A stretch of DNA of 59,407 nt from a virus (Duplodnaviria > Caudoviricetes): the IMG/VR virus record IMGVR_UViG_3300042375_000244, positions 1 to 59,407 of that record. One strand, given 5' to 3'. A model generated the notes under the pieces. That model worked only from the letters and a program-made list of their open reading frames with translations. It ran no database searches and was not told where the DNA came from. Below are positions 1-59,407 of this stretch, piece after piece. Position 1 is the first letter of the stretch. Each line of letters opens with the position of its first letter. The position numbers and the translations under genes were made by a program.

Positions 1-122
1 AAGGTCGATGTACGTCACGTTGTTCTTCTGCCCGATCCGGTGAGCACGGTCCTCTGACTGGATGCGAACCTCCAAATCAAAGCTGTTGGCGTAGTAAATA
101 ACCGTCGAGGCTTCTGTCAGGG
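1..122. repeat. Terminal direct repeat, left copy (circular overlap)
   Basis: Bases 1-122 match 59286-59407 and lie inside the SNF2 helicase frame, so this is an assembly overlap of a circular/permuted contig. Confidence 0.95.
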
Positions 123-1350
123 TCAAGCCGTATCCGCCAGTGCGCGACTGCCCAACAAAGAAGCGCAGCTTGGAGTCCGGGTTCTGAAACTCCAAGACGA
201 TGACCTGTCTTTCTTCCGGGTGGGTCTTCCCAGCATAAACCGCAACCGACTCAGCCCCATACTGCTTGGCTAGAGCTTCTTGAATCATCCGCAAGTCCTC
301 GACGTAAACCGCCCAGATGATGACCTTTCCTGTCACCTCCTCCAAAACTGTCAGCAGTTCTGTCAGCTTGTTCGTTGACAGCTTTTCGATCTGTCCGTCG
401 TCTGTCTTGATGAAGCCCGAACAAATCTGTTGGAGTCTTAGCATCTGTGTCAGAACATTCTGAGCTGTCACCATCCCGCCGTCCTTCTCCAACAGCGTGA
501 CAGCATTGTCCTTCATCTGTTTGTAGGCCACGGCCTGTTCGTCTGTCAGCTCAACCGACCGCTTGATGTAGAGTTTGTCCGGCAGGTCGAGGCAGTCCTT
601 CTTCAGGATGCGGTACGAGAAGCCCTCAAGTTTGTAGGACAGCTCGTCCAAGTTCTGATACCCGACAATCTGATTAAAGCTATGCGATCCGAGTGTGCGC
701 CTGACGATCTGGGCATACCGACCTTGGAACGAGAAGAAGGAGTTATACCCCAGCGTATGTGGACCAAGGAACGCGCACTGACTATATAGATCCATAGGCG
801 ATTGAGTGACGGGCGAGCCTGTCATGATCCGCCGATACGCTGCCTTTGATCCGACCTTGATGACGTTCTTCGTCCGCTTGGCCTTCATGTTCTTGATCGT
901 CGTGCTCTCATCAATCGCCACCAAGCACTTGCCCAATGCGACAAAATCAGTCGCGTAGTCCGTACCCTTCTCCGTGGATAAAGCCTCGATGTTCATCACG
1001 ACAATCTTCAAACGGTTGCTTGGTTTAAGGGCGTCGTCCAACGGACCACGGGCCTTCTTGGTCGAAGACGGGGACCACGCAACAATGTCTGTCTCAGCCA
1101 GAATACTGTCGGGCAAATGCTTGGGCAGCTCTGTCTTCTCCCAGTTCTTATAGACGCCCTTGGGAGCGACGATCAGGACAGCGTTGATCTTGTTCTCTTG
1201 AAACAACGCGCCAATCGTGTCGATTAAAATCTTGGATTTGCCTGTCCCCATCTCGCAGAACAGGGCATAATCAGGCTTCGACCACGACCTGTTCAGCGCC
1301 TCAACTTGATGCGCGAACGGCTGCATCTTGTATTGGTAGTTTGCAATCAT
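1..1350 (-). CDS. SNF2-family (SF2) helicase, 5' part; continues across the junction to 59181 (484 aa total)
   Basis: Absent from the ORF track. Manual translation from ATG 1350 (AGGAG upstream): MIANYQYKMQPFAHQVEALNRSWSKPDYALFCEMGTGKSK (Walker A); later IDES and QSEDRAHRIGQ motifs. Confidence 0.9.
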   Translation of the reverse strand, partial: MIANYQYKMQPFAHQVEALNRSWSKPDYALFCEMGTGKSKILIDTIGALFQENKINAVLIVAPKGVYKNWEKTELPKHLPDSILAETDIVAWSPSSTKKARGPLDDALKPSNRLKIVVMNIEALSTEKGTDYATDFVALGKCLVAIDESTTIKNMKAKRTKNVIKVGSKAAYRRIMTGSPVTQSPMDLYSQCAFLGPHTLGYNSFFSFQGRYAQIVRRTLGSHSFNQIVGYQNLDELSYKLEGFSYRILKKDCLDLPDKLYIKRSVELTDEQAVAYKQMKDNAVTLLEKDGGMVTAQNVLTQMLRLQQICSGFIKTDDGQIEKLSTNKLTELLTVLEEVTGKVIIWAVYVEDLRMIQEALAKQYGAESVAVYAGKTHPEERQVIVLEFQNPDSKLRFFVGQSRTGGYGLTLTEASTVIYYANSFDLEVRIQSEDRAHRIGQKNNVTYIDL

Positions 1351-1373
1351 TGAACCATCTCCTTTCTGAGAGA

Positions 1374-1437
1374 GTACTAACACAAGATAAACTTAATATC
1401 AACAGGGGTTGACTGCATCGAGAACGGATGCTAGGTT
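1374..1437. promoter_or_regulatory. Divergent sigma70-type promoters for helicase (left) and replication operon (right)
   Basis: Plus strand TTGACT(1409)-17 nt-TAGGTT(1432); minus strand TTGATA(1402)-17 nt-TAGTAC; AT-rich gap between divergent genes. Confidence 0.55.
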
Positions 1438-1461
1438 GACTCGTTAACGGGAGAACTCCGA

Positions 1462-8799: not shown

Positions 8800-9144
8800 T
8801 CAGGCGTACATATCCCGCACCTGCTGGAGCGACAGGAAGGTGATCGTGGGCGACAGGTCCAGATCATCCGGCGCCGCCAAAGTCTCCCCCTCCTCGTCTG
8901 CGTCGCCAAGAACAAGGCCGTTCCCGGCAAGAGGCTGCGCCCACCCTTCCAGCATGAAGAAGTGCTGCGGGTTGTTGAGCAAGCCCTCGTCGTCAACGAA
9001 GACGCTCAGGCTGTGGCCCCCTGATTCGGCATACACGATGTCGAACAGATCGCATCCGATGTGAGTGTAGATGGTCTTGTAGTCGCCGTTGTAATCAACC
9101 GGCGTGATGGTCTTCGTCTCGGAGTCAATGAGGTAGGCTTTCAT
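8800..9144 (-). CDS. DUF3846-like phage protein
   Basis: MKAYLID...IGCDLFDIV...VFVDDEGLL...LAGNGLVLG pattern; start placed at ATG 9144 behind AAAGG. Confidence 0.7.
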   Translation of the reverse strand: MKAYLIDSETKTITPVDYNGDYKTIYTHIGCDLFDIVYAESGGHSLSVFVDDEGLLNNPQHFFMLEGWAQPLAGNGLVLGDADEEGETLAAPDDLDLSPTITFLSLQQVRDMYA

Positions 9145-9495: not shown

Positions 9496-9508
9496 GCTGC
9501 TACCCCTG

Positions 9509-9835: not shown

Positions 9836-9836
9836 G

Positions 9837-14736: not shown

Positions 14737-15435
14737 TTGGCTTCGTCAGACCCGAAACGACGCATCCCGATCACGGCCCTAAGGGTCATGGGTGAGCGGG
14801 CTTATGGACTAACGGCAAAGCAGGAGACCTTCTGCTTGAACTATGCCGCTGGCAATATCACGCAGACGGAGGCGGCGCGCCGGGCTGGGTTTTCGAACCC
14901 GGCTTTTGCTGCGTCACGGTTTCTGAACGGGCGCGACTACCCTCACGTCCTGCGCCGGATTGTGGAGCTGAAGCACGAGCTGTCACGCCGGTTCGAAGTG
15001 ACCTTTGAGAACCATGTAAAGAAGCTGGCAGAGATGCGAGACATGGCCTTGGCTGACAAGAACTACTCTGCTGCCATCGCGGCAGAGAAGAACCGTGGTC
15101 AGGTGGCCGGGCTGTATATCGCACGGCACGAGATCATGATCGGCAAGATCGACCAGATGAGCCGCGAGGAGGTGCTGGCCGAGATTGAGAAGCTGCATCA
15201 GGAATACCCTGCTCTCGCGGCAAACCCAGCACCCAAGCAAGACCTGTCACTGATCGAGGATGTAACCTTTGAAGAAGTCCTTGAACCCGTCCCCGATGAG
15301 GTTGGACATGAGCCGGACCGCCAAGAGCCTGAGTACCGAGGCCGGACTTTGGAAGAGCCTCCAAACCGCGACGACGAAGATGGTCCATTGGACGAGGATC
15401 GAAGCCCGCGTAGGCGCTGGCATCCCCGACCTTAA
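14737..15435 (+). CDS. terS: Terminase small subunit
   Basis: LTAKQETFCLNY...TQTEAARRAGFS HTH; AAIAAEKNRGQVAGLYI; start uncertain (TTG 14737 or ATG 14788). Confidence 0.8.
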   Translation: MASSDPKRRIPITALRVMGERAYGLTAKQETFCLNYAAGNITQTEAARRAGFSNPAFAASRFLNGRDYPHVLRRIVELKHELSRRFEVTFENHVKKLAEMRDMALADKNYSAAIAAEKNRGQVAGLYIARHEIMIGKIDQMSREEVLAEIEKLHQEYPALAANPAPKQDLSLIEDVTFEEVLEPVPDEVGHEPDRQEPEYRGRTLEEPPNRDDEDGPLDEDRSPRRRWHPRP

Positions 15436-15739
15436 CGGCGCGATGACGGACCTTGAGTTCTGGCTGGAGCTGAAGGTCGTAAAAACTGTCAGCTTCAAGA
15501 CCGAGGGCTTGTGGAGACCCGCACAGGTGGCGTGGCAGATGAAGCGCGCCGCATCCACGCCTGACAGGATCTGGAATCTTGTCAGCCACCCGGCGGGCCA
15601 GTCTGTCAGATTGTACCGGGGCGACAAGGTGATGAATCTAAACCGTGGGATGGACGCGGTGACGGACTTTGAAACGCACCTTCCTCCGAACTGGTTCGCG
15701 ATGTTGGATTTCATCCGGAGGCGTAATGACAAAACGTAA
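15308..15739 (+). CDS. PD-(D/E)XK nuclease, Holliday junction resolvase/VRR-NUC-like
   Basis: EAGLW...TRIE...GIPDL...FWLELKV...PAQVAW motifs. Confidence 0.75.
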   Translation: MSRTAKSLSTEAGLWKSLQTATTKMVHWTRIEARVGAGIPDLNGAMTDLEFWLELKVVKTVSFKTEGLWRPAQVAWQMKRAASTPDRIWNLVSHPAGQSVRLYRGDKVMNLNRGMDAVTDFETHLPPNWFAMLDFIRRRNDKT

Positions 15740-16106
15740 CCCTGTCAGCTTTAGCATAGCTGTGCCGCAAGATTTTTATGATTTCATGAACGTGGCAATC
15801 ATCCACGCAAGGCAGACCCGCAACATCAAGATCTCAAGGCGGCGCGTCTGTCTGGCGTCAGGTCTGTCACACGCGACCCTGTTTGAAGCGGAAAAGCGCC
15901 AGCGCGACCTGTCTTTTGGAACGATCATACGATGCTGCACGGTGCTGGGATACGAACTCAAACTTGTCAGGTTGCCGCCGCCACGCGCGATTGCGGAATA
16001 TGACGAGGCAATCCGAGAGCGGCCCGGCGCGCGCAAGAAAAAGCCGACCGGAGGCGTGAACTTTTTCAAAAAGAAAAACACCGCACCTCCGGAAGAGGCG
16101 CGGTGA
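15726..16106 (+). CDS. XRE-like HTH DNA-binding protein
   Basis: ISRRRVCLASGLSHATLFEAEKRQRDLSFGTIIRCCTVLGYEL; basic tail. Confidence 0.65.
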   Translation: MTKRNPVSFSIAVPQDFYDFMNVAIIHARQTRNIKISRRRVCLASGLSHATLFEAEKRQRDLSFGTIIRCCTVLGYELKLVRLPPPRAIAEYDEAIRERPGARKKKPTGGVNFFKKKNTAPPEEAR

Positions 16107-16671: not shown

Positions 16672-17598
16672 CTAGGCGGCCTCCTGAACGGGCGCGCCGC
16701 CGTGTTCCTTGAGCATGGTTTCCAGCCACAAGGCGGGGTTCTTGATCGTTGCGTCGTCCATATGCGCCGCGCCGATATAAAGGCTGGCGGCTGCGTCGGG
16801 GATTGCGCGGGCTAGGATTGCGTGCGCGTGCGCGCGGATTGCGTCTTGGCCTCCCCTGTACGGCCAGTGTAGATTTTGCGTGTCTACTGGCGCGCCCGTG
16901 ACTTCATAGGCTGCGCCATAGTATAGGCTCCGCGCCGTGCTGGTGTGGCATAGCATGTGCGCTGCGCGGGCAAGGTCCAGCGGGGCGGTGTCCATACGCG
17001 TGAATATGTGACAGGCGTCATGGCGTCGCTGGTCCCGCAGATGTCCCGCCGTTACGCTGACGCCAACATATAGCGAGACCGGGCGGGCGGCTGACAGAAG
17101 GCGCACGAGCGCCAAGATTGCGGCGCCTCGCTTTTCAAGGTCAACGCTGTCGATGCCTGCGCTGCTGGCAATGTCCACAATGATTGCGAGCGGTGCTTGG
17201 TCGCTGCTGATGCGCTGACGCTGACGCATTGCCAGCGGGTGGCCTGCCAGTGCTGCCGGGACGCACGGGACGCCCCCGGCGACTGCTGCAACCGTGCGCC
17301 AGCGCCGCGAGACTAGGTGCAAGGCCTCGAAGCGGGTCAAAAACTCATCGGAGCGCGCGACAATGGCGGGGTTTCCCTCGCGGAGGCAGCGCATGCTGGC
17401 GTCGAATGACAGCCCGCCGCGCCACGCGTCGCCCTTGTCCGAACGGGCGGGGCGCGCCTTGTTGACGCTCTTGAAAAGCGTCGCCGTCTGCGTCATGTCG
17501 CCAATGGCGTATGTGTCGAGCGTCGTCTTGCATCCATCGCGCGCCGCTATGGCGTCGATTGCAGGAAGCGTGAACTTGTGCATCTTAGACCCCCTCAA
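16672..17598 (-). CDS. VWA-like partner of MoxR AAA ATPase
   Basis: VPAALAGHPLAM then LAIIVDIASSAG (MIDAS-like) and RGAAILALVRLL; adjacent to the AAA gene; true start may be the MHKF Met. Confidence 0.65.
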   Translation of the reverse strand: MRGSKMHKFTLPAIDAIAARDGCKTTLDTYAIGDMTQTATLFKSVNKARPARSDKGDAWRGGLSFDASMRCLREGNPAIVARSDEFLTRFEALHLVSRRWRTVAAVAGGVPCVPAALAGHPLAMRQRQRISSDQAPLAIIVDIASSAGIDSVDLEKRGAAILALVRLLSAARPVSLYVGVSVTAGHLRDQRRHDACHIFTRMDTAPLDLARAAHMLCHTSTARSLYYGAAYEVTGAPVDTQNLHWPYRGGQDAIRAHAHAILARAIPDAAASLYIGAAHMDDATIKNPALWLETMLKEHGGAPVQEAA

Positions 17599-18976
17599 TC
17601 ATGCGGCGCTGGTCGGCGCTCAACCCGGCGAGATAGGTTAAGTCGGCTGCTTCGTCGCTCGTAAAGCCCGCAGCGATAAGTGCCGCGCCCGCTTGCATCT
17701 GGCGCAAGTCAATCAGATGCTTGAGACCCACGGCGCGGGCGCGCTCGCGTGCTGCTTGTACGCGCCGCGCAAATGCCGCATCGCCAGAGATTGCAACCTC
17801 CAGCGCCGGGTCTGCATCCCACTGGAGCTTGACCGGAAAGCGTGACAGAAAAGCAGCGTCGAGGCGATTGCGCCCGACAAAATCAGCCGTCGCGCCTGTC
17901 CCGTGCGTGTTACCTGCGCCGATGATGACGCAATCCCGATGCCGCGCGACCATACCATCAGGAAAGCCCGCATATCCGTTCGCGAGCGCCGCGTTGAGCG
18001 CCAGCGTTACGCCTGCATCCCAGCTATCAAGCTCATCAAGGATAACCAGCCCGCCCTTTTCAAACGCATCCCGGAAAGGCGTCCGATGTGTCCGTCCGTG
18101 CGCGTCCGTAAAGCCCAAAAGCTCATGCGACATGCTCATCGCGCCGTGCGCGTAGTACTCCAGCCCAAGCGCGCTCGCTACCTGATGCGCCGCGTGGGTC
18201 TTGCCGGTGCCGGTCGGCCCGACTAACATCGCGTTTGGCGTATAGCCTGAGGTCATACGCGACGAGCATGTGCGGAGTAGGCGCGCAAGCTGCGGGTGCG
18301 TGTGTCCCTCGGTTTTGCCGGTTGTGCCGTCGTGCCGGGCAACCTCGATCCGGACGGTCTGCACGTTCTCAAGGCGGCGCTCGACGATGCGCGTAATCTC
18401 GGGCGCCAGCGCGCCGAGGATGTGCGGCAACACCATCGCGCCAAGTGCTGCGCCTGCCGGGTCGGCGGCTGTCACGGCTGCATCTGGCACGACTGCCGGA
18501 GGCGTCGTGGTCGTGGTCGTGGCCGTCTGCGCCTGTCCTGTTTTCGCGGCGCGTGCCGCCTGTCCCTGTTCGGTGGCGCGTATTAGGCACATATACTGCG
18601 CCGACGTTGCCGCGCCGTTTTGTTTGTTTTGAACCGTGTCAATTATGCTGTCACATTTGACGTTCTCCGCGCCGTCCCATGGCAGGAAGGAGCGGATCTC
18701 TCTGTAACCTTCAACGGCTGCGGCAAATGTCGCCGCGTCTATGTTGCGTTCCTTCATGTTGTCCTCCTGCGTTGTGGTGTTGCTCGCCTCTGCTGCTGCG
18801 AGCACGGCGTAGATGTCAATTCCAAGAGCCTTGCAGGCTGCAATGCACTCTGTCGTGCCAAGGCTGCTGGCGTCCAATCCGTGTTCGCGCCGGTAGGCGG
18901 TCCAGCCGTGGTGGCTGGTGATCGCCCGGCGCACGATTGATCGGCGCGCTACTCCTAAAATAATCTGGTCGCTCAT
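17585..18976 (-). CDS. MoxR/CobS-type AAA+ ATPase
   Basis: LVGPTGTGKT, VILDELD, LNAALANG, IIGAGNT, GRNRLDAAFLSRF. Confidence 0.88.
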   Translation of the reverse strand: MSDQIILGVARRSIVRRAITSHHGWTAYRREHGLDASSLGTTECIAACKALGIDIYAVLAAAEASNTTTQEDNMKERNIDAATFAAAVEGYREIRSFLPWDGAENVKCDSIIDTVQNKQNGAATSAQYMCLIRATEQGQAARAAKTGQAQTATTTTTTPPAVVPDAAVTAADPAGAALGAMVLPHILGALAPEITRIVERRLENVQTVRIEVARHDGTTGKTEGHTHPQLARLLRTCSSRMTSGYTPNAMLVGPTGTGKTHAAHQVASALGLEYYAHGAMSMSHELLGFTDAHGRTHRTPFRDAFEKGGLVILDELDSWDAGVTLALNAALANGYAGFPDGMVARHRDCVIIGAGNTHGTGATADFVGRNRLDAAFLSRFPVKLQWDADPALEVAISGDAAFARRVQAARERARAVGLKHLIDLRQMQAGAALIAAGFTSDEAADLTYLAGLSADQRRMIEGV

Positions 18977-19008: not shown

Positions 19009-19038
19009 ATCCTATTTCAGCGCCGCGTCGGCTGTCAA
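19009..19038 (-). promoter_or_regulatory. Sigma70-type promoter for the AAA/VWA cassette
   Basis: TTGACA-18 nt-TAGGAT, about 30 nt upstream of AAAGGG RBS and ATG 18976. Confidence 0.65.
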
Positions 19039-19190: not shown

Positions 19191-19355
19191 CTGTCAGCCG
19201 GTAATCTGACAAAAGCCCCACGATTATCTGACACCGATCTGTCAGCCGGCAAACTGTCAGCGTCTTGTCACCGGCCCACGCCCCCTGCTGTTCTGTCAGT
19301 GGTCGATGATCGACGGAGGCTGTCAGGCTGTCAGCGGCTGTCAGGCGGCTGTCAC
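19191..19355. repeat. Array of 11 TGWCA pseudo-palindromic motifs, most as CTGTCAG
   Basis: TGTCA at 19192, 19240, 19255, 19266, 19294, 19321, 19329, 19339, 19350; TGACA at 19207, 19229. Confidence 0.85.
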
Positions 19356-19402: not shown

Positions 19403-19608
19403 AGGCGACCCCCCTAAACGGGGCGCGTCGCGCACGGACGCACATATATCACTGTTTGTCTCGCTAAATCAGCAACTTCCAGAGGTCCATGGTCCAGGTA
19501 CAGTTTACTCCGGTTTTCCAAACCCCCACCCAACCACCTCTGCAAACCTCACCCCCGTAAACCAAACAAACCCCTCAAGGGACCCTACCCCCACCCCCAT
19601 CAAAAAAA

Positions 19609-19624
19609 TGTTTCACGTGAAACA
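19609..19624. promoter_or_regulatory. parS: Perfect chromosomal-type parS site
   Basis: TGTTTCACGTGAAACA, exact 16-bp consensus palindrome, extending to 18 bp (19608-19625). Confidence 0.85.
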
Positions 19625-19743: not shown

Positions 19744-21210
19744 ATGTCTGCATTGGAATTACTGCCTGATGAGGCTGCCAAGCGGTACGCGCAGCTTTTG
19801 GACCGTGCTGTTAAGATGACGAAGCAGGAGACGGCGCGGGAGAGCTTTATTGATTACGTGAAGTACGTGTGGCCGGGATTTGTGGCCGGGCGGCATCATA
19901 AGATTGTTGCTGACAAGCTGGAGCGTGTGGCTCGTGGCGAGTTAAAGCGTTTGATTATCAACATGCCGCCAAGGCATACGAAGTCTGAGTTTGCGAGCTT
20001 TTTGTTTCCCTCGTGGTTCATTGGGCGGATGCCGACGAAGAAGATCATGCAGGCGACGCATACTGCGGATTTGTCGGTTCGGTTTGGCCGCAAGGTCAGG
20101 AACCTGATGGACGGCGAGGACTACCATCAGGTGTTCCCGCAGGTGAAGTTGAGGGCGGACAGTAAGGCTGCTTATCGGTGGGAGACGGACGACGGCGGCG
20201 AGTATTACGCGGCGGGTGTTGGGTCGAACATTGCGGGTCGCGGCGCTGATTTGTTCATTGTGGACGACCCGCACTCGGAGCAGGACGCGCTATCGCCGAC
20301 GGCTTTGGATGCGGCGTGGGACTGGTATATGTCGGGACCTCGGCAGCGGTTGCAGCCGGGCGGGGCGATTGTTGTGGTTATGACTCGTTGGGGCGACAAG
20401 GACCTGACGGCGCGTTTGCTCAAGCAGCAGGCGACGGACCCGAAGGCTGACCAGTGGGAGATAGTCGAGTTTCCGGCGATCTTGGACTCTGGCAGATCTC
20501 TGTGGCCGGAGTATTGGAAGCTGGAGGAGTTGGAGAAGATCCGTGCGTCCATCAGTTCGTCGAAGTGGCAAGCGCAGTATATGCAGCAGCCGACTTCTGA
20601 CACGGCGGCGATTATCAAGCGGGACTGGTGGCAGATTTGGGAACCGGAGAAGGTGCCGCGTTTACAGTATGTTATGCAGTCTTACGATACGGCGTACCTG
20701 AAAACACGGACCTCTGACTTTACGGCGATACAGACGTGGGGTGTGTTTTACCCGAAGGAGGACTCGGGGCCGAACGTGATTCTTTTGGACGCTAGGAAAG
20801 GCCGGTGGGAGTTTCCTGAGCTGAAGCGGATTGCGTATGAAGAGTACAAGTATTGGGAGCCTGACACGATTTTGATTGAGGCGAAGGCTGCGGGTATGCC
20901 TCTGACGCAGGAGCTGCGGCAGATGGGAATACCTGTCGTGAACTTCTCGCCAAGCAGGGGCAACGACAAGCACGCGCGTGTTAATGCTGTAGCGCCTATG
21001 TTTGAGTCTGGTTTAGTGTGGAGGCCGGACGCTTCGTGGGCGGAGGAGGTCGTAGAGGAAATCGCGGCCTTCCCGTTTGCCGATCATGATGATATGGTCG
21101 ATTGTGCTACGCAGGCTTTGATGCGGTTCCGGCAGGGCGGGTTTGTGTCCCATCCTGATGATTACCAGATGGACGACGAACCACGGTCCACCAACAGGGT
21201 ATACTACTGA
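19744..21210 (+). CDS. terL: Terminase large subunit
   Basis: INMPPRHTKSE, GRGADLFIVDDPH, VVMTRW, QSYDTA, HDDMVD motifs. Confidence 0.95.
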   Translation: MSALELLPDEAAKRYAQLLDRAVKMTKQETARESFIDYVKYVWPGFVAGRHHKIVADKLERVARGELKRLIINMPPRHTKSEFASFLFPSWFIGRMPTKKIMQATHTADLSVRFGRKVRNLMDGEDYHQVFPQVKLRADSKAAYRWETDDGGEYYAAGVGSNIAGRGADLFIVDDPHSEQDALSPTALDAAWDWYMSGPRQRLQPGGAIVVVMTRWGDKDLTARLLKQQATDPKADQWEIVEFPAILDSGRSLWPEYWKLEELEKIRASISSSKWQAQYMQQPTSDTAAIIKRDWWQIWEPEKVPRLQYVMQSYDTAYLKTRTSDFTAIQTWGVFYPKEDSGPNVILLDARKGRWEFPELKRIAYEEYKYWEPDTILIEAKAAGMPLTQELRQMGIPVVNFSPSRGNDKHARVNAVAPMFESGLVWRPDASWAEEVVEEIAAFPFADHDDMVDCATQALMRFRQGGFVSHPDDYQMDDEPRSTNRVYY

Positions 21211-29449: not shown

Positions 29450-29471
29450 CAGCGCAGCAATGGAGATTGCT

Positions 29472-40134: not shown

Positions 40135-41505
40135 ATGTCCAGACGTTATAAGGGTGGCGTGATAAGCGCGACTGCGCCGACGACAAGCACGTCCTCGGCT
40201 ACCGGCGTTTGGACGCTTAATCAGCAGATGGTGGCTATTGTCGGTAGCGGCTGGCCGTCGCAGCCTGTCGGATGGATTGCGTTGTTGGGTGGGGCGGGCG
40301 CCCAACAAGGGCGTTCTGTAACTGTAGACAACTCTGGGAATGTTTATGTTGGCGGGTGGTCAAACGCCAGCGGAACAGAAGATTTTCAAATAGAAAAATA
40401 TAACATTTCGGGTTCCATACAATGGCAGCGCACATTAGGCGGGGTTGGAGCTGAAAACGCAAATGGAATTGCCGTAGATAGCTCTAGTAATGTTTTTGTT
40501 TGCGGATATTCAAATGCCAGCGGGTCAAACGATCTTCAAATAGCAAAGTACGACACATCTGGGGCTATCCAGTGGCAGCGCAGGCTAGGCAGCGCAAATA
40601 ATGATACGGGCGCTTCTGTGGCCGTAGATAGTTCCGGCAATGTTTATGTCTGTGGAAGATCGGATAATAGCGGGACTAATGACGTTCAGATAGCCAAATA
40701 TAACACTTCTGGCACTATCCAATGGCAACGTAGGCTTGGGGGAGTCGCAGCCGACTTTGCTTTTTCCGTAGCCGTAGATAGCTCCAGCAATGTCTATGTC
40801 TGCGGTCAAACAGACCCAACGGGGGCGCAAGAGGTTCTAATAGCCAAGTACGACACATCTGGAACAATTCAGTGGCAACGAAAGCTTGGAGGGGCAAGCG
40901 ACGCGTCAGGTAGTGGTATAGCCGTAGACAGTTCTGGAAATGTTTTTGTTTGTGGAACTTCAGTTGCTAGTGGAGACGGCAGATTTCAAATAGCCAAGTA
41001 CAATACATCGGGGACAATCCAGTGGCAGCGCAGTCTCGGTGGGTCAGGAATAACCACTACTGGAACTTCAGCAGCCGTAGATAGTTCAGGGAATGTCTAT
41101 GTTTTTGGATATTCCCCTGTTGGCGGAATAAGTAACTTTCAACTTGCCAAGTACGATACCTCTGGAGTTATCCAATGGCAGCGCAGGTTAGGCGGGGCAA
41201 GCGCAAGTTTAGGCTTTTCTGTAGCTGTAGACGGGTCTGGAAATGTTTACGTTTCGGGGTACTCAAACGCGAGTGGAACGAATGATATTTTGTCTGCAAA
41301 ATTACCCAGTGATGGGTCAGCAACAGGTACATATACCGTTGGTGGCTACTCATTTACCTATGCAGCATCAACATTAACCGACGCAGTTACAACTTTGACA
41401 GACGCAGCAGCAAGCCTCACAAGTGCTGCCAGCAGCCTCACAGACGCCGCCTCTACCCTCACAGACGCCGTATCTACCCTCACATCCTCGGTGACATCGA
41501 TATGA
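40135..41505 (+). CDS. Receptor-binding protein candidate, seven-bladed beta-propeller
   Basis: Seven ~50-aa repeats (AVDSSGNVYV.G...IAKYxTSGxIQWQR.LG); C-terminal 7-aa TLTDAxx repeats. Confidence 0.8.
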   Translation: MSRRYKGGVISATAPTTSTSSATGVWTLNQQMVAIVGSGWPSQPVGWIALLGGAGAQQGRSVTVDNSGNVYVGGWSNASGTEDFQIEKYNISGSIQWQRTLGGVGAENANGIAVDSSSNVFVCGYSNASGSNDLQIAKYDTSGAIQWQRRLGSANNDTGASVAVDSSGNVYVCGRSDNSGTNDVQIAKYNTSGTIQWQRRLGGVAADFAFSVAVDSSSNVYVCGQTDPTGAQEVLIAKYDTSGTIQWQRKLGGASDASGSGIAVDSSGNVFVCGTSVASGDGRFQIAKYNTSGTIQWQRSLGGSGITTTGTSAAVDSSGNVYVFGYSPVGGISNFQLAKYDTSGVIQWQRRLGGASASLGFSVAVDGSGNVYVSGYSNASGTNDILSAKLPSDGSATGTYTVGGYSFTYAASTLTDAVTTLTDAAASLTSAASSLTDAASTLTDAVSTLTSSVTSI

Positions 41506-41756
41506 CCGCGTACATCAAGCTATCAACCAATGAGTACCCGCGTCATGCTGGCGACATTGCCCTTGACCCGGCAGGTGAGTACGCCGTTGTTCAATGGGTA
41601 GACCCGCCGGAGTTTGACCGTGCAACGCAACGCTGTGGCGAGGGCGCTCCGGTAAATGACGGCGGTACGTGGCGCATGACTTGGGTTGTGCGTCAGGCTA
41701 CACAAGCTGAGATTGACGAGGCTAACAAGCCGTTTGACCCAATGAACTTGAGGTAG
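41502..41756 (+). CDS. Tail fibre assembly/chaperone-like small protein
   Basis: YP...P.FD...Q...EG.P...W...W.V pattern after the fibre gene. Confidence 0.6.
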   Translation: MTAYIKLSTNEYPRHAGDIALDPAGEYAVVQWVDPPEFDRATQRCGEGAPVNDGGTWRMTWVVRQATQAEIDEANKPFDPMNLR

Positions 41757-41760
41757 CACC

Positions 41761-43878
41761 GTGAGCACGAGATACCCCGGCGGCATCATCACGAAGACCC
41801 CTGTTGTTCCTACGGGACCGTATGAGAGCGGCACAGCTCCCGGCATATGGACTCTTGAGCAACAGCTACAGGCTCAGAAGGCTGGCATATGGCCGTTGGC
41901 GGGGAATGTTCCAAACTTCATTGAAGACGTATTCTCGACGTACCTGTACACGGGCACTAATGCTTCTCAAACCATTACAAATGGGATTGATCTGAGCGGT
42001 AAAGGTGGGTTGGTTTGGACTAAAAACAGGTCTGCACTTACTGGGGGTTATACCGGGTTCGACCGGCATATTTTATTTGATAACATACGAACAGGAGCCA
42101 CTGGTGGTGGGGCTGGAGGTGGAGGCGTTCTACGCTCAAATGCGGCAACTTTAGATGATGCAACCACAACTTATCTAAGCTCATACAACAGCACCGGCTA
42201 TACTATTGCTTCAAACGCTACAATCTCCAACGCAGAGTTTATAAATCAAAGCGGCACTACTTTTGCCTCATGGACCTTCCGCAAGCAGCCGAAGTTTTTT
42301 GATGTTGTGACGTGGACTGGCAATGGTGCAAACAGGACCATCGCCCACAATCTTGGCTCGGTGCCGGGCGCAATCTGGGTTAAACGAATAGACGCAACGG
42401 GTGACTGGCAGTGCTATCACCGCAGCCTTGCTAACACGCAGTATATGGTTTTGAACACCACGGCGGCAGTAGATACTGGTGCAACGCGCTGGAACTCTAC
42501 AACGCCGACATCTTCAGTGTTTAGCCTTGGTACGGATGCAACAGTCAATGCTTCTGCTGGAACCTACGTCGCCTACCTCTTCGCCCACGACGCAGGAGGC
42601 TTCGGCCTGACCGGCACGGACAATGTGATTTCGTGTGGGAGCTTTGCAGACCCGGCGTCAGGTGGCACTACAGAAGTAACTCTTGGGTATGAGCCGCAGT
42701 GGTTGTTAGTCAAGCCAAATCTTGCAACAACAGATTGGTATTTAATTGACAACATGAGGGGTATGGTTCGCGGATCAGCAACTAGAATATTAAATCCAAA
42801 CCTTTCCGCCGCAGAAAGCAATGGGTTTTCCAATGGCTATTATCAGCCAACAGCAACAGGTTTCACTGCGGGAAATACAGTAACTAGTGGCGGAGGAACT
42901 AATTGCATCTACATCGCCATCCGCCGTGGCCCGATGAAGGTGCCGACTGATGCGACGAAGGTGTTTACGCCTGTGCTTAGAAACGGAACCGGATCGACCG
43001 CAACCGTTACTAGCGCAGGCGGCGTAGTTGACCTTGTAATTCCGTTCATCCGTAATGGGTCTGCTGTTCCAAACTGGTTTGATAGACTTAGGGGTCGGTA
43101 TCTTCAGCTGCGGTCAAATGGAAGCAACCCAGAAAACTCGTATAGCGATACCCTAACGGGATTTGATGTTATGACGGGGTTCAGCGTTGGGTCTGATGCT
43201 GGAGGGTTTGGTGTAAACACCAGCGGCCAATCTATAATCAACTGGTCTTTTGGGCGCGCCCCCGGCTTCTTTGATGAGGTCTGTTATTCTGGGTTAAATA
43301 GCTTTCAAGACCTGTCGCACAATCTTGGCGTGACGCCACAGATGATAATTATTAAAAACAGAACCACCAACGGGACAAATTGGACTGTAGGGTTACAAGG
43401 AATTACAGGAACTGGGAAATATCTTGTTCTTAATTCAACAGCGGCAGTTGTAAGCGACGTTAACTATTTTGGTAGTAGTTGGACAAGTACAAATGTTTTA
43501 GTTGATGGGAACGTTGCCCCAATCAATCAGAGTGGTTCTAACTATGTAATGTATCTATTCGCCACATGCCCCGGCGTATCCAAAGTCGGCTCATACACTG
43601 GCACCGGGACAACGCTTCAGATCAACTGCGGGTTCACGGCTGGATCAAGGTTCGTGCTTATCAAGCGCACCGACAGCACAGGCGACTGGTACGTCTGGGA
43701 CAGCGCACGCGGCATAGTTGCGGGTAATGATCCGTATCTGTTGCTCAACAGCACGGCTGCGGAAGTCACCGGCACTGACTACGTTGACACCTATTCCGCA
43801 GGCTTTGAAATCAGCTCCACGGCTCCCGCTGCAATCAATGCCAGTGCTGGCACATACATCTTCTTGGCAATCGCGTAA
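41761..43878 (+). CDS. Tail fibre/receptor-binding protein with repeated beta-rich domains
   Basis: Repeated FF.VV.Y.G...HNLG..P...K...W modules. Confidence 0.8.
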   Translation: MSTRYPGGIITKTPVVPTGPYESGTAPGIWTLEQQLQAQKAGIWPLAGNVPNFIEDVFSTYLYTGTNASQTITNGIDLSGKGGLVWTKNRSALTGGYTGFDRHILFDNIRTGATGGGAGGGGVLRSNAATLDDATTTYLSSYNSTGYTIASNATISNAEFINQSGTTFASWTFRKQPKFFDVVTWTGNGANRTIAHNLGSVPGAIWVKRIDATGDWQCYHRSLANTQYMVLNTTAAVDTGATRWNSTTPTSSVFSLGTDATVNASAGTYVAYLFAHDAGGFGLTGTDNVISCGSFADPASGGTTEVTLGYEPQWLLVKPNLATTDWYLIDNMRGMVRGSATRILNPNLSAAESNGFSNGYYQPTATGFTAGNTVTSGGGTNCIYIAIRRGPMKVPTDATKVFTPVLRNGTGSTATVTSAGGVVDLVIPFIRNGSAVPNWFDRLRGRYLQLRSNGSNPENSYSDTLTGFDVMTGFSVGSDAGGFGVNTSGQSIINWSFGRAPGFFDEVCYSGLNSFQDLSHNLGVTPQMIIIKNRTTNGTNWTVGLQGITGTGKYLVLNSTAAVVSDVNYFGSSWTSTNVLVDGNVAPINQSGSNYVMYLFATCPGVSKVGSYTGTGTTLQINCGFTAGSRFVLIKRTDSTGDWYVWDSARGIVAGNDPYLLLNSTAAEVTGTDYVDTYSAGFEISSTAPAAINASAGTYIFLAIA

Positions 43879-55300: not shown

Positions 55301-58300
55301 CGGGAACGTATCTCGGACGGTCTTGGCTTCTATGCACGGGAAGCATTGAAGGTTCAGCCCGAGGGTCAAAACCTTGGTTTCGGTCTTGGCTTGCCCCAGA
55401 TCACCCCGATGGAATTGATCGACGCTGCAATTAAGCGTGCTCAGGGGGCAACCCCTCCGTCTGCCGTAACTACCGCAGCAATCACGATGTCGTCAGTCAC
55501 CACTAAAGGTTTGGATGGACGCAGGCGTGTGACCTTCTCAGACGGAACCGCGACCGACATTCAACGATACGAGACTGGAACTTCTTCCAAGGTCCCCGGC
55601 TGGCATGATGTAACTTCAGATCTTGGGGAAGGGTCCTATCTTGGAAAGACCCAGAATAGGGCGATTGCCGAACTTCTGAAGCGCAAGAACGCCCAGAAGT
55701 TTGTACCTGACACCGCGCCGATAGGGGTGGTGGATGATCCAAAGCCCACTGACCTTGGACCTTCGAACCAACCTGTCATTGTTGGCGAGGTTCCGCAGTC
55801 GGTCAAAGACAGCACAACCCTTGAGCTTGGACCGGGAACCGCGCAGTGGTTTGAACAAAACCTTCCGGGCGTGGATAACGTGCTGCGTGAGTTGCAGTAT
55901 CGCCTGTATCCGGGGACGCGGTTTACTGTTCAAACCGACAAGCCTCTTGAAGGTTACGGGCGGGCTAAAACATCCGAGGGGTCGGTTGTAATCAATGTCG
56001 ATCCCTTTCAACTAAAGGAAGACTTTGAGAAAGCTGGTGGAGACTACCGAGCCAAGCTCTTGCACACACTTCTCCACGAGATGTCGCACCCAATTCAATT
56101 TTTCTGGGTTAACAATGCGGACGTCAACACGCAGGCAGCTATCTTTGCCCAGTTTCTGAAAGAGCGAAGCGGCACTGCGGTGCAGCGTGCGGGCCTTCTA
56201 AAATACATTCTTGACCAGAAGAACTCCAATGTAGACGTCCAGACTCTCCGCGAGCGCCTACTCAAGACGTTTAGTCTTACCGACGGGCAGTTTAGGAGAT
56301 TGCTCGAAACGGAACGGAACATAGGCGAGAAGTCCCCAGACATCTATCGCAAGAACCTAAGCGACGCCTACTATAGGAAGTACTCGGAATGGGTGGCCGA
56401 GAAGGGGGCTCAGTGGATGTCGAAGGAGCTTCAAGGTCGTCTCCCGCAGACGGTCTTTGAGAAGTTCCAAAAGGAGATGTTCGTAAAGCTTCGCAGCATC
56501 TACGAGACAGTCGCTAAACTCTTGGGCGTTCCAACAAGCACGGGCGCTTTCGAGAAGATGTTGTCAGATATTTGGGGGGTTAAGGTAAGCACCCCCAAAG
56601 CTAGGTTCGGGGTCAAGGACGGCAAGACAAACAAGGACTCGGTTCTCTCTGATGAGGCCGAGGCTGCTTATGAGAAGGCCTTGGACGGTGATCCGTCTGC
56701 CATCAGCAAGCTGCCCGGCGGCGATACTGCACGTCTGAACTCCGAGAAGTTTGCAAAACTCACCACCAAGGTGCGGACATTCTTCGACCCCACGTACATG
56801 ATTGACAAGTATCCAATTCTGTCAGAGTTCCGGAACCTTCTCTTCGGCAAGATCGGCATGGCTACGCAACGTGCGAAAGATCTGTCGGACACAATCTCGA
56901 AGGGGACGCCTGAAGTGCAGGCGCAGTCCTACACCTTCTTGACCACGCGCGACGCCAACCCGAACATCATCACTGACGAGAACGTCCGAAAGGCGTCCAT
57001 CGAGGTGAAGAAGGAAATAAATCGCATCGCGCAGGAGATGGTGAGCAAGAAGCTTCTGTCACAGGAGAGCCTCGACAAATACTATGACCAGTACTTGCCG
57101 CGTATGTATCTGTACTACGAGGCTACAGGTCGTGGGGTTAAGAGCCCGAACAGAACGATCTCTGACCAAGGCTATCTGGATCTTCGCAAGGAGCTTTCGG
57201 AAGAGGAGCGCAAACTTCTTGGTGAAATTAAAAACCCTGCGTTCTTGTCTTATGTGGCGTTGACCCGTCCGCAGAGCGACTTGGCGATGGCCGAGTATTT
57301 CTCACAAATCAAAACTCAGTCCACGAAGGGTTCGGCGGAAGACGCCAAGGAGGAGGATAAGGTCAACTGGATCGCCCCGAACTCCCTCGTGGAGTTTCAG
57401 GGAGAGATGGTGACGCCGTACTGGTTGTTGGCGGAAGCCAACACGATGGACGACATTGCTAGGCTGACCGAAGAAACTGACCCTGCCGCTGCAAAACTAA
57501 TGCGGGAGCGGGCAGATGACATGCGCCGTACCGCTGCCCCGGAGAAGTCGCGTCAGGAAGCTGTTGATCTCCCTGAGAACTACCAGCGTCTGCCGGACAG
57601 CCCTCGGTATGGGGTGTTGCGTGGCGCGATTATTCAGAAGGGGATTTACGACGACATCGTTGGAGGCTTCGTGTCGATCCCTCGTGGGGAAATGCCGTTC
57701 ATACAAAGGCTTCTTGGCGACGAGCAGAGCGCCCTCGTCAAGATAAACCAGATCTGGAAACTGTCGAAGATTACGTTGAACATCCCCTCGCAGGCCCGCA
57801 ACGGGATCTCAAACACGATTGGTATGCACTTCTTCGGCGGGGTGCCGCTGTACCGTATCCCCGGTTATCTCTATCGCGCCGCGAAGGAGATTACGGAAAA
57901 CGGAGACTCCTATAAAGACGCGCAGAAGTACGGCATCACGGGTGGAACTATGTCTGCCGCTGAGATGATCCGGGTTCGCGCCGACCTAGAGCAGTATCTC
58001 CGCAAGGGTGGCGGCAAGGATGGAGGTCTCTTTGGTGCGTTTGCTGCGGCACGTATTATAGCAGGCAAGGGTATCGGCGCTGCCTCTGACACATATCAGA
58101 GGATCGAAGTAGTCTTTAAGATGGCGATGTTTCTCCATGGTCGAGAGAAGGGGCTGTCTCCTTCTGCTTCTGTGGATGCTGCCAACGAGGCGCTGTTCGA
58201 CTACACGCTTGTAAACCCGAACATTCGGTATCTCCGTAACGCGCCGCTCGGCCTGCCCTTCGTGACATATTATTACAAGGCGTTGCCGAAGCTGGTCGAG

Positions 58301-59134
58301 ACGGCTTACAAGCATCCGACCCGACTTGTGCCTTACGTCGCTCTGGCCCTCGCCATCCCCCAACTGACAATGCTTGCGTTCGACATTGACGACGACGATT
58401 ACGAGGCGTTGCGTAAGACAATGCCCGAATACATCCGCAACAAGGGTTCTCTTTTCATCCTCCCCTATAAGAATGAGAAGGGTGATTGGAAGTACATTGA
58501 CACCGCCCCGTTCTTCCCGTGGTCCGCGTTCTCTGACCCAATCGTGCAAGCGACTTTCCGGCAAGATCCCGGTGGTGCCTTGAAGGAAGCGGTTAAACTC
58601 ATCACCTTCTCGGGTCCTATCGTGACAGCCATTGCTGGCATAACCACGGGCCGTGATCCGTTCACGGACAAGGAGATCATTGATCCGCGTCAGACCCCGC
58701 AGAACAAAGCTCTTGCTTTGGTGTCCTATGTCTGGAACCAAGCGATGCCGTCGATGTTGGCGATTGATGCTGTCAATCCTCAGAACGCGGCAGGCGCAAT
58801 CCCCCGTCTGTACAACGATGCGTTCGGTTCAGGCACTGGACTAGACAAGCGCGGTCAGCCCAAGCCTGAGTTCTTAGAAAACGCTGCTCGTCTGTTCGGC
58901 GCTAACATCAATACTCTGGAGCCTGTCACCCAGCGGGCGTTGAACATCAACTACATGACCAACAAAATCCGCGCTTCCGAAAGCCTCCGGGCTCAGATTG
59001 CAAAGGATCAGAGCATGACGCCGGTCGCCCGTCAGAGGGAAATCTTCGCGCTGAACGAGAAGATCCGTGAGGACTACAAGAAGCTCCAAGAGTACGCGAC
59101 GGAGACCGCACGGGCCACCAGCTTGAAGAAGTAG
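52382..59134 (+). CDS. Large polyvalent virion protein (2250 aa): ddrB-like ParB-fold domain and HExxH metallopeptidase-like motif
   Basis: LQPRDR...GAPIV...VESGNGR.MAL (ParB fold); LLHEMSH; Ala/Gly-rich TM-like N-terminal region; helical C-terminal region. Confidence 0.8.
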   Translation: MPVYEVQAPNGTILQIEGPEGASEESILSYAEKVAYPAFLAGKKKPEPQQSFLRQVADIPLQIGKGAASDVRSVIDTFGPGKTVSEGARSVEAYAQELLSAQSRKDSAEIARIMDEAKDEGILENVVAAARAFSVAPLDLIAQGVGSTIPRLALARVAGPYGIAALGAYGAASGAGTIKGAIFEETKKELMGRGVSEDVATGLAQKAAAYDGENLGQILIGTGLGVVAGVTGAERIINNALRRIGGAAARRQVGSTFGEGSTEVGRGVFARTALGVAGEAPLEALQGGQEQLAKNLAIQQEGFDRPTFQGVAGSAALDAIVGGAIGGTAGAAFGRRPDVIPPVVSPGSPGAETPPPAIPPAAPGLPTAVPAGAPPGAAVAAAAASPLQTDQSIQNIAAAQTGAVVPSSGPLKRSQTGAPVLAQGATNVVDPQLVTSAAQKLPLFGQGTIGRAFAGQTDVGQTLDPSTRPLALGVLPRDLAGARPRYKTTPLEFADGVTQALFITAPRKDGKKSDRDADYRKWLESQGYSPSEIDLRGKEVRNYIGSLVKKAPGVSLLPVPTFPKVAARAAQQPVAVAGQVAGQVAGQVADPSGRVTTTIADGLGPRYGMEPGAAAPAALAPAVAAPAPSTTDLGPASARTPEPLRVKTIKTGVPSTPEIEVAPQIVELSDIISSEIPGYDPTLQPRDRTRIGSDIQIADIIAKFDPQLLTFDLSTKRGAPIVNQNLNVESGNGRIMALRRIYESRPELAEAYKNELSRLGFDVSGMKNPVLIQRRITPLTPEETQQYLGTANTPDVMPMSALENAKQDAKRISPEMLDLIPEDRDYTYPEFVREFLRRLPATDLNDMLTNEGELTPDGERRVRNAVFAKAFGDPQAVARIAESTDDNIRSISNALIDNIVNFAKVRIAVDEGNIDPGFSTEPLVDAINRISRMRSTGTSLERYISQVDAFNPLPPMTEKFMRLFYSEKARALGRERISDGLGFYAREALKVQPEGQNLGFGLGLPQITPMELIDAAIKRAQGATPPSAVTTAAITMSSVTTKGLDGRRRVTFSDGTATDIQRYETGTSSKVPGWHDVTSDLGEGSYLGKTQNRAIAELLKRKNAQKFVPDTAPIGVVDDPKPTDLGPSNQPVIVGEVPQSVKDSTTLELGPGTAQWFEQNLPGVDNVLRELQYRLYPGTRFTVQTDKPLEGYGRAKTSEGSVVINVDPFQLKEDFEKAGGDYRAKLLHTLLHEMSHPIQFFWVNNADVNTQAAIFAQFLKERSGTAVQRAGLLKYILDQKNSNVDVQTLRERLLKTFSLTDGQFRRLLETERNIGEKSPDIYRKNLSDAYYRKYSEWVAEKGAQWMSKELQGRLPQTVFEKFQKEMFVKLRSIYETVAKLLGVPTSTGAFEKMLSDIWGVKVSTPKARFGVKDGKTNKDSVLSDEAEAAYEKALDGDPSAISKLPGGDTARLNSEKFAKLTTKVRTFFDPTYMIDKYPILSEFRNLLFGKIGMATQRAKDLSDTISKGTPEVQAQSYTFLTTRDANPNIITDENVRKASIEVKKEINRIAQEMVSKKLLSQESLDKYYDQYLPRMYLYYEATGRGVKSPNRTISDQGYLDLRKELSEEERKLLGEIKNPAFLSYVALTRPQSDLAMAEYFSQIKTQSTKGSAEDAKEEDKVNWIAPNSLVEFQGEMVTPYWLLAEANTMDDIARLTEETDPAAAKLMRERADDMRRTAAPEKSRQEAVDLPENYQRLPDSPRYGVLRGAIIQKGIYDDIVGGFVSIPRGEMPFIQRLLGDEQSALVKINQIWKLSKITLNIPSQARNGISNTIGMHFFGGVPLYRIPGYLYRAAKEITENGDSYKDAQKYGITGGTMSAAEMIRVRADLEQYLRKGGGKDGGLFGAFAAARIIAGKGIGAASDTYQRIEVVFKMAMFLHGREKGLSPSASVDAANEALFDYTLVNPNIRYLRNAPLGLPFVTYYYKALPKLVETAYKHPTRLVPYVALALAIPQLTMLAFDIDDDDYEALRKTMPEYIRNKGSLFILPYKNEKGDWKYIDTAPFFPWSAFSDPIVQATFRQDPGGALKEAVKLITFSGPIVTAIAGITTGRDPFTDKEIIDPRQTPQNKALALVSYVWNQAMPSMLAIDAVNPQNAAGAIPRLYNDAFGSGTGLDKRGQPKPEFLENAARLFGANINTLEPVTQRALNINYMTNKIRASESLRAQIAKDQSMTPVARQREIFALNEKIREDYKKLQEYATETARATSLKK
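54107..54149 (+). repeat. 12-nt tandem repeat x3.5 encoding VAGQ
   Basis: GTTGCTGGACAG units. Confidence 0.85.
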
Positions 59135-59137
59135 AGT

Positions 59138-59180
59138 TTGTCAGAAAGTCAGAAAGCAAGGCTTTATGGTTTTCTGACAA
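59138..59180. other. Inverted repeat between convergent late operon and helicase gene
   Basis: TTGTCAGAAA (59138-59147) and TTTCTGACAA (59171-59180); both arms contain TGWCA. Confidence 0.55.
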
Positions 59181-59407
59181 TCAAATAAGCCATTCTTTGT
59201 ACCCCTCGGACAGCACCTCGCTGGCGATGTTGATCTTGTTCCGGAGCGCCTTGAGGACCTTCTCCTCAACGGTGTTCTCCGTAACAAGGTCGATGTACGT
59301 CACGTTGTTCTTCTGCCCGATCCGGTGAGCACGGTCCTCTGACTGGATGCGAACCTCCAAATCAAAGCTGTTGGCGTAGTAAATAACCGTCGAGGCTTCT
59401 GTCAGGG
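59181..59407 (-). CDS. SNF2-family helicase, 3' end (joins 1-1350)
   Basis: Reads ...TVEEKVLKALRNKINIASEVLSEGYKEWLI* in frame with the 1-1350 part. Confidence 0.9.
   Translation of the reverse strand, partial: LTEASTVIYYANSFDLEVRIQSEDRAHRIGQKNNVTYIDLVTENTVEEKVLKALRNKINIASEVLSEGYKEWLI
59286..59407. repeat. Terminal direct repeat, right copy
   Basis: Matches 1-122. Confidence 0.95.

Follow-up and report, generated by a model that had tools for sequence, protein, structure and literature searches.

The window analyzed here is the whole 59,407-bp stretch of DNA, a complete phage record of IMG/VR (IMGVR_UViG_3300042375_000244) with a G+C content of 55.6%, in which the five-base word TGWCA is strongly over-represented both inside and between genes. 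TGACA is the reverse complement of TGTCA, so that the two forms are one word on two strands. The same 122 bp are present at both ends, which gives a 59,285-bp circle as assembled. The gene content includes a Pam3-like replication module, an AEP primase, a UvrD-type helicase, PolA, a leftward block of small early genes, and structural and packaging genes for the terminase small subunit (TerS), the terminase large subunit (TerL), an SU10-type portal, and the capsid; an SNF2 helicase gene spans the assembly junction. The nearest named phages are distant (primase 41-44% identical), no integrase was found among the window proteins scanned, and tRNA and Rfam scans of the window gave no match. The window DNA was found nearly unchanged in 24 lake-water metagenome runs, and no RNA runs were listed among the holders. 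Contigs from four lake-water runs contained 26 differences in 20 kb, none of them in a TGWCA site compared with approximately 0.7 expected, a number too small to bear on site selection.

Abundance and form of the TGWCA word

The original prediction held that TGWCA is over-represented throughout the genome, even within genes, whereas base composition alone would give approximately one copy per 600 bp. Both statements were borne out: the window contains 245 sites (118 TGACA and 127 TGTCA; 244 in the circle), and the mononucleotide expectation is 100. Dinucleotide shuffles gave 119.4 sites (standard deviation 10.8, maximum 146), and none of 100 attained the observed number. Neither a Markov model nor codon-preserving shuffles, the two controls that had been proposed, reproduced the count. 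With an order-3 Markov model, 176.5 sites were expected, and TGWCA was still the top-ranked pentamer pair (z = 5.2). Within genes, 193 sites were observed versus 101.7±8.2 in synonymous-codon shuffles (maximum 128; 0 of 300 attained 193) and 89.0±8.9 in codon-order shuffles, which rule out codon usage and amino-acid composition as the cause.

The distribution of the sites relative to genes was also examined. By the synonymous-codon control, TGWCA is approximately doubled in each of reading frames 2 and 3, such that enrichment is present in all usable frames. Coding DNA contains 210 sites in 55,611 bp (3.78/kb) and non-coding DNA 34 sites in 3674 bp (9.25/kb). Sense-strand counts (TGACA 105, TGTCA 88) revealed no bias relative to the direction of transcription, and the density was flat around gene starts and stops, indicating no association with promoters or gene boundaries.

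Further analysis of the flanking bases indicated that the enriched word is longer than five bases. TGWCA flanked by C and G on its two sides (CTGWCAG) occurs 62 times versus 8.8 expected, sites with one such flank occur 127 times versus 47.1, and sites with neither flank are not enriched (56 versus 62.9). Based on this split, the palindrome CTGWCAG (7 bp) is the enriched word, and it tolerates one mismatch at an outer base. Such a mismatch leaves a 2.7-fold enrichment, and mismatches at positions 2 and 3 or an S centre show none. The commonest hexamers genome-wide are CTGTCA (135) and CTGACA (116), each including its reverse complement, and no sequence information was detected beyond the -1 and +5 positions of TGWCA. 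The symmetric flanks, the use of both strands and of all usable frames, the enrichment in non-coding DNA, and the codon-preserving controls show that the sites are selected at the DNA level, as double-stranded DNA; the earlier argument from enrichment to selection is supported.

That argument had relied on the usual avoidance of palindromes by phages, and this premise is apt for the window. Among the 64 six-base palindromes, 26 are nearly absent (several with 0 versus 12-22 expected), and six-base palindromes overall reach 38% of expectation. CCWGG occurs 5 times versus 136 expected and GANTC 103 times versus 266, and TGWCA is the sole palindromic pentamer class clearly above expectation. On the other hand, such avoidance could itself raise the frequency of the words that remain. 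It does lift the TGWCA expectation slightly (from 102 to 113), but shuffles in which 39 avoided palindromes were also barred gave 113.2±9.7 (n = 40, maximum 142) versus 208 observed, and none of the 40 attained that number. Moreover, the strongly avoiding sister genomes G002 and G004 (CCWGG 0/142 and 5/115) are not enriched. Palindrome avoidance was therefore rejected as the cause, and it is extremely improbable that the enrichment is a by-product of codon usage, amino-acid content, or palindrome avoidance.

Two other origins were also considered and rejected. A relation to the missing CTGCAG and GTGCAC sites finds no place, since both are lacking in enriched and non-enriched genomes alike, and an origin from CGWCG by CpG deamination does not fit the number of CGWCG sites, which are not depleted (199 versus 177.5). 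With regard to GANTC, this word is wholly missing from the rhizobiophages phiM5 (L171; 0 versus 197 expected) and P106B (L173; 0 versus 177 expected), and 88 copies versus 287 expected were counted in pSymB, a replicon of Sinorhizobium meliloti.

The sites had also been described as clustered. The regional counts given earlier were all correct on recount, and the regions concerned contain the following numbers of sites:

1-600: 9 TGWCA sites
9480-10090: 8 sites
15480-15970: 8 sites
19192-19354: array of 11 sites
23780-23860: 3 sites
28560-28800: 6 sites
29440-29640: 4 sites
36100-36180: 4 sites
38510-38820: 8 sites
46660-46730: 3 sites
59138-59180: 2 sites, in an inverted repeat

Clustering proper is confined to the array at 19.2 kb, where 11 sites lie in less than 200 bp (mean 5.1 and maximum 9 in 1000 uniform scatterings); elsewhere it is weak, with 43 spacings of 11-40 bp versus 27 expected. 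The cluster at 1-600 falls within the SNF2 helicase gene that wraps the assembly junction. The TGTCA series at 38.5 kb is due to tandem repeats within a protein gene (38309-38944, plus strand), which consists of units of approximately 100 bp encoding a repeated peptide and is duplicated in the relative G001. The inverted repeat at 59138-59180 (TTGTCAGAAAG … TTTCTGACAA) lies between the convergent ends of the gene for a 2250-aa protein and the SNF2 gene; both of its arms carry TGWCA, and it resembles a shared terminator hairpin.

Several genes are poor in the word. The observed/expected ratio is approximately 0.5 in the genes at 40135-41505, 41761-43878, and 46843-48366, the first two of which form one tail-module feature:

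40135..43878, plus strand: two tail-module genes without enrichment, observed/expected 0.5 each

These two genes have low third-position G+C, and a match was found only in G003 (44%) among five relatives compared. The tail-module genes at 40135-43878 and 46843-48366 contain SBBP beta-propeller repeats and DUF7483, are lower in third-position G+C, and have few or distant homologues in close relatives. Judging from these sequence features, they look like recently exchanged host-range genes.

Distribution of the word among relatives and unrelated phages

The evolution of the enrichment was investigated in 80 PolA-centred IMG/VR loci related to the window. TGWCA observed/expected was 1.60-2.78 in 12 of the 80 and at most 1.42 in the other 68. 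In a 41-row PolA tree from a quick maximum-likelihood search, from which L039 was left out because of an internal stop, the 13 enriched rows form one clade with a Shimodaira-Hasegawa-like approximate likelihood ratio test support of 95. The G+C content within this clade ranges from 44 to 58%. The preferred flanks also vary: approximately half are C in the window-like members and in L020 and L041, and G001, L016, L018, and L019 show a weak preference for G or A.

The retention of individual sites in relatives, which the original prediction had proposed as a check, did not come out in its favor, as positions are conserved no better than control 5-mers. Between the window and G005, 42 of 148 TGWCA sites are conserved (0.284) compared with 0.269 for all 5-mers, and between the window and G001 the corresponding values are 14 of 117 and 0.119. 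For L020 and L041 (95% identical), 68 of 75 sites are conserved versus 0.837 for 5-mers of the same composition (p = 0.14), and for L011 and L013, 28 of 55 versus 0.481. Given this background-level conservation and the apparently swapped-in genes that lack enrichment, the density of sites is inherited while their positions turn over.

Such turnover would also fit a neutral sequence drive, in which context-biased mutation or repair makes a word without benefit, as has been proposed for very-short-patch repair and some iterated palindromes. The persistence of density with background-rate turnover (42/148, 14/117, 68/75, and 28/55) and the swapped-in genes without the word both agree with it. However, among the one-mismatch neighbours of TGWCA, none is specifically enriched or depleted in enriched versus non-enriched genomes, and a repair drive of the very-short-patch type was rejected on this ground. 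The ordered arrays at a conserved non-coding place, the presence of the same word in two unrelated phages with a common gene pair, and the lack of enrichment in host DNA, all described below, also speak against a drive of this kind, which is accordingly rated as quite unlikely.

Iterated words of this genome-wide kind are known from cells (HIP1, Chi, and DNA uptake sequences) and from one group of temperate phages, where they are called stoperators. HIP1 (GCGATCGC) is an iterated palindrome of cyanobacterial, i.e. cellular, genomes and is associated with cognate methyltransferases. Like HIP1 and other iterated palindromes, the word studied here is a short palindrome far above expectation, over-represented genome-wide beyond codon usage and placed in coding DNA through codon choice, and its density rather than its position is kept. 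Unlike HIP1, it occurs in a phage genome, where CGATCG itself is missing (0 versus 21.8 expected) and where no methyltransferase family was found in Pfam, PHROG, and NCBIfam scans of approximately 60 window proteins, some small open reading frames (ORFs) lying outside these scans.

The genes that accompany the enrichment were examined by a whole-record gene comparison of the enriched relatives G001 and G005 with the non-enriched relatives G002-G004. Six genes were present in both enriched records and missing from G002-G004, namely those for an AAA+ ATPase, a DUF7192 protein, a DUF3846 protein, and an XRE-family helix-turn-helix (HTH) protein, and the ORFs at 33359-33652 and 34509-34976. They are given here together with the terminase genes:

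8800..9144, minus strand: DUF3846 protein, 114 aa, isoelectric point (pI) 4.1, last gene of the leftward block
14737..15435, plus strand: TerS, common to non-enriched relatives
15726..16106, plus strand: clade-specific XRE-family HTH protein, 126 aa, pI 10.3, a rival candidate reader of the word
16672..17598, minus strand: DUF7192 protein (Pfam DUF7192), 308 aa, directly downstream of the AAA+ ATPase gene
17585..18976, minus strand: MoxR/CobS-like AAA+ ATPase, 463 aa, first gene of the leftward operon
19744..21210, plus strand: TerL, first gene past the array region
33359-33652: 98-aa ORF of the enriched genomes, with a weak match in G001
34509-34976: charged 155-aa protein restricted to enriched genomes

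The AAA+ ATPase matches Pfam AAA_5 and phrog_249 (E = 4e-47) and is 59% identical to gp64 of phiM5 over 271 aa (E = 5e-96). The DUF7192 protein is 38% identical to phiM5 gp63 over 297 aa (E = 2e-57), and phiM5 was the only one of 50,697 phage records with a full-length DUF7192 homologue. This phage is LUZ24-like and belongs to a different family from the window, with a different capsid gene. Its genome contains 423 TGWCA sites versus 61.5±7.6 expected and 84 CTGWCAG versus 5.05, evenly spread along the genome, and its ORFs contain 374 TGWCA versus 82.2±7.0 in synonymous shuffles. In these two unrelated phage lineages, a 7-bp palindrome is found in nearly every gene, against an extreme avoidance of palindromes.

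The window and phiM5 have the AAA+ ATPase, DUF7192, DUF3846, and a MazZ-like gene in common. In the other phages compared, the enrichment follows the AAA+/DUF7192 pair but neither of the remaining two genes. Among cultured phages, DUF3846 is present in the Sinorhizobium phages phiM5 and ort11, and ort11, which carries DUF3846 only, is depleted of the word (TGWCA 102 versus 174 expected). P106B, with a distant AAA+ ATPase only, is not enriched (CTGWCAG 3 versus 2.2). All enriched relatives examined carry the DUF3846 protein, but so does the non-enriched ort11; the protein is acidic, and its confident structure model (predicted local distance difference test score 90) has no PDB analogue, which weakens its case as the determinant. 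The MazZ-like product (10547-10936, minus strand) is a dATP/dGTP diphosphohydrolase N-domain protein. Taken together, the enrichment goes with the AAA+/DUF7192 pair in two unrelated phage lineages. This co-occurrence would agree with a phage-encoded factor that recognises sites spread along the genome, for which the original prediction proposed a putative role in genome organisation, translocation, or packaging.

A wider scan of IMG/VR with a DUF7192 alignment detected 43 loci, of which 25 had at least 4 TGWCA/kb and 18 at most 2.7/kb; these densities are raw counts without shuffles, and non-enriched relatives have approximately 1-2.5/kb. The 25 TGWCA-rich loci include two phiM5-like records without the window's capsid gene (G011 and G015), and three others (G012, G013, and G014) have neither capsid type but are fragments. 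G011 (L205) is a complete 42.9-kb provirus with DUF7192, 9.4 TGWCA/kb, and a capsid protein 76% identical to that of phiM5, which implies that the marked lineage includes integrated forms.

Bacterial DNA was compared as well. In 50 kb of S. meliloti pSymB, TGWCA is not enriched (53 versus 62.5 expected), and in five bacterial genomes holding loci of the relatives, CTGWCAG is about as frequent as its reversed control. The density of CTGWCAG is 1-2/kb in phage DNA and approximately 0.1/kb in host DNA. Since pSymB is not enriched, the word is not a host self signature, at least for the host species of phiM5, to which this replicon belongs. Chi and DNA uptake sequences are signatures that the host encodes and its own machines read; Chi is also asymmetric and has an orientation. 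Like them, the word is short and over-represented, and in those systems density lets a machine tell DNAs apart; unlike them, it is not enriched in host DNA and tracks phage genes. When relatives in bacterial assemblies were searched for clues to the host, 46 loci were obtained, but their bins were very mixed; 31 of the loci were at least 6 kb long, and the word was enriched in none of these. The window also encodes a homologue of the cell-cycle regulator GcrA (12323-12982, minus strand). This gene and the occurrence of DUF3846 relatives in phages of Sinorhizobium are hints of an alphaproteobacterial host.

The array region and candidate readers of the word

Between the leftward AAA+ operon and TerL lies a gene-free region of 768 bp with the following features:

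19009..19038, minus strand: predicted sigma-70-like promoter (TTGACA, 18-nt spacer, TAGGAT) facing the AAA+ operon, its -35 box being a TGWCA site
19192..19354, plus strand: array of 11 sites, mostly CTGTCAG in one orientation
19437..19454, plus strand: GACGCACATATATCACTG, which aligns with the last bases of phiM5 (…GCGCATATATC, the end of its right terminal repeat)
19609..19624, no strand: parS, an exact canonical 16-bp palindrome (TGTTTCACGTGAAACA), in the same intergenic region 255 bp past the array

Measured from the ATPase gene, the array is 215-380 bp upstream, and relatives are arranged alike: at the equivalent place, G005 has 9 sites in 145 bp and G001 has 20 sites in approximately 740 bp. 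The last four units (GGCTGTCAG) are spaced 8, 10, and 11 bp apart with GC-rich spacers. In phiM5, the annotated direct terminal repeat of 357 bp contains three CTGACAG, with spacings of 12 and 10 bp, approximately 50 bp from the physical end, and the gene order once the genome is closed (ATPase operon, terminal repeat, TerL) is the same as in the window. The phiM5 end GCGCATATATC aligns with window positions 19440-19450 and with G005. This gene order and alignment suggest that the 768-bp gap of the window is a terminal-repeat region, and a physical genome end may lie near 19437-19454. No molecule ends were seen in the contigs of four lake-water runs, which are assembled contigs only and cannot map termini. 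The parS site is a separate element beside the array rather than a form of the TGWCA word. It is kept in G001 (L091:18902-18917), G005 (L104:6002-6017), and 7 of 19 HTH-centred loci, and none was found in G002-G004, even at two mismatches.

A link of the array with genome ends or packaging is plausible from this arrangement. The array could serve as a terminase or end-recognition site with the dispersed copies being secondary, as its position directly upstream of TerL, the three phiM5 copies inside the terminal repeat, the aligned phiM5 end, and the exact parS in the flanking region would fit. Nevertheless, the TerS and TerL proteins are 52-79% identical to those of sisters without enrichment, and a packaging signal has no need of approximately 250 copies inside genes. 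In addition, the tie between array and end in the window relies on likeness to the phiM5 end, and the physical ends of the window phage cannot be mapped on assembled contigs. As an account of the whole pattern, a packaging signal is considered unlikely.

The spacing of the array also recalls sites of host factors. The word is the conserved core of proteobacterial Pho boxes, and the Pho-box passage of PMC2573895 gives the PhoB binding site as CTGTCAT-N4-CTGTCAT. The core letters CTGTCA are common to both, the last array units lie approximately one helical turn apart (10-11 bp), and the possible alphaproteobacterial host would be compatible with the sites being read by PhoB, or with a host nuclease that spares word-rich DNA in a Chi-like manner. 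Pho boxes are direct repeats in tandem, separated by AT-rich spacers and found at a few promoters, whereas the sites here are mostly single, flank-palindromic, and inside genes. No direct repeats of CTGTCAT with a period of 11 bp and AT-rich spacers were found, and only the last array units, 8, 10, and 11 bp apart, come near to them. Moreover, the rhizobiophages ort11 and P106B and the replicon pSymB are not enriched, and the phage's own PhoB-like gene is found in non-enriched relatives and missing from the enriched G001. A host factor as reader is therefore regarded as quite improbable. Full-text searches for TGWCA or CTGWCAG in the prokaryote and phage literature gave the Pho-box passage alone, the phiM5 genome paper and supplements being outside their coverage.

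The PhoB-like gene (8429-8794, plus strand) encodes a stand-alone PhoB/OmpR-type winged-helix domain below the Pfam cut-off. It was rejected as a reader because its profile matches occur in the non-enriched G002-G004 and not in the enriched G001. The ORF at 15269-15739 (plus strand), which follows TerS and has an apparent PD-(D/E)xK VRR-NUC-like motif (…IPDL…ELK…) read by eye, was also rejected as the determinant, as it is present in all relatives, enriched or not. A PADLOC search of the window gave weak P-loop matches only. The omega protein of pSM19035 and MetJ are ribbon-helix-helix dimers that bind arrays of heptads or met boxes at a handful of sites. The units here would likewise be recognition units of 7-8 bp, single or arrayed and in either orientation; unlike in those systems, there are hundreds of sites, and no match to ribbon-helix-helix or other DNA-binding families was found among the small ORFs scanned.

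Another candidate is the XRE-family HTH protein, for which the sites might form an operator network of TGACA-N5-TGTCA operators and weak single half-sites, similar to stoperators. Its gene is present only in the enriched clade, and TGWCA observed/expected was 1.4-4.65 in all 19 HTH-bearing IMG/VR loci. The protein is basic (pI 10.3) and has an XRE fold like HipB and ClgR. Its recognition helix GLSHAT is invariant, and the residue just past the helix is E/D in genomes with C flanks and K/R in those with G/A flanks. The window contains three TGACA-N5-TGTCA versus approximately 0.25 expected, and two identical copies occur in the intergenic region of G001. Against these points, phiM5 has the stronger motif and no XRE HTH homologue was found in it, more than 95% of the sites are single 7-mers, which are too short for an HTH dimer, and neither an orientation bias relative to transcription nor a change of density around gene starts and ends was observed. 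The 19 HTH loci also belong to one clade and hence represent one evolutionary event. An operator network of this kind is judged unlikely.

The stoperators of Cluster A mycobacteriophages (L5 gp71 type) are 13-bp asymmetric sites, a few dozen per genome, which are oriented with transcription and bound by the repressor of a temperate phage. The similarity lies in a phage word scattered in and between genes with a denser set in a regulatory region. The differences are that the word here is an unoriented 7-bp palindrome at approximately 4-10/kb, its binder is only a candidate, and no integrase was present among the scanned window proteins; the asymmetric, transcription-oriented form of approximately 13 bp does not apply to CTGWCAG. 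A protein that could correspond to the cognate repressor, the clade-specific XRE HTH protein, is present in the window, yet phiM5 has the motif without it.

Based on the DNA-level selection, the single enriched clade, the co-occurring gene pair, phiM5, the negative controls, the adjoining arrays, and the wider scan of IMG/VR, we favor a reading, with a probability of roughly 40%, in which CTGWCAG is a selected 'self' mark read by an early AAA+/DUF7192 machine. The main site of this machine would be the array in what is probably the terminal region. In this scheme, the MoxR/CobS-like AAA+ ATPase (17585-18976) and its DUF7192 partner (16672-17598) would read CTGWCAG early. The dense array beside the gene pair, probably located in the terminal repeat, would be where the machine preferentially enters or loads, and the hundreds of single sites would act as low-affinity copies whose number matters rather than their exact position, such that dense marking would benefit the phage DNA as a whole. 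As a guess at the outcome, the self mark might serve to protect or handle phage DNA during early infection, at the genome ends, or both. A more specific version, in which an immediate-early AAA+/DUF7192 machine tells phage from host DNA by CTGWCAG density and protects, compacts, or spares the marked DNA, is doubtful. If true, it would be a phage-encoded counterpart of Chi/RecBCD-type discrimination, and DUF7192 variants might read different words.

Several observations weigh against the self-mark reading. Residues 1-192 of the ATPase match no Pfam family, no recognised DNA-binding domain is present in either the ATPase or the DUF7192 protein, and the ATPase relatives are annotated as cobalt-chelatase-like remodellers rather than DNA enzymes. 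DUF3846 and the MazZ-like gene are also common to the window and phiM5, so that more than one gene could be responsible. In the window's own family, genes and enrichment became associated in a single evolutionary event, and the independent lineages overall number two, perhaps three. Single sites are conserved like control 5-mers, which also fits a neutral drive. Finally, 18 of the 43 DUF7192 loci are not TGWCA-rich, which implies that the pair is not sufficient unless variants read another word. As phiM5 is cultured and its host S. meliloti is genetically tractable, both the reader and the selection on density are directly testable. If true, the self-mark reading would provide a first function for DUF7192 and for the widespread 'CobS-like' ATPases of phages.

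Two additional features of the window may be mentioned. A long A/T homopolymer tract lies at approximately 14461-14499 in a gene-poor stretch, and poly-A runs of 9-10 nt rank among the most frequent long k-mers. The 2250-aa protein of the virion module (52382-59134, plus strand) has a ddrB-like ParB-superfamily domain at residues 657-775 (E = 1e-25) and may be an injected multi-domain protein.

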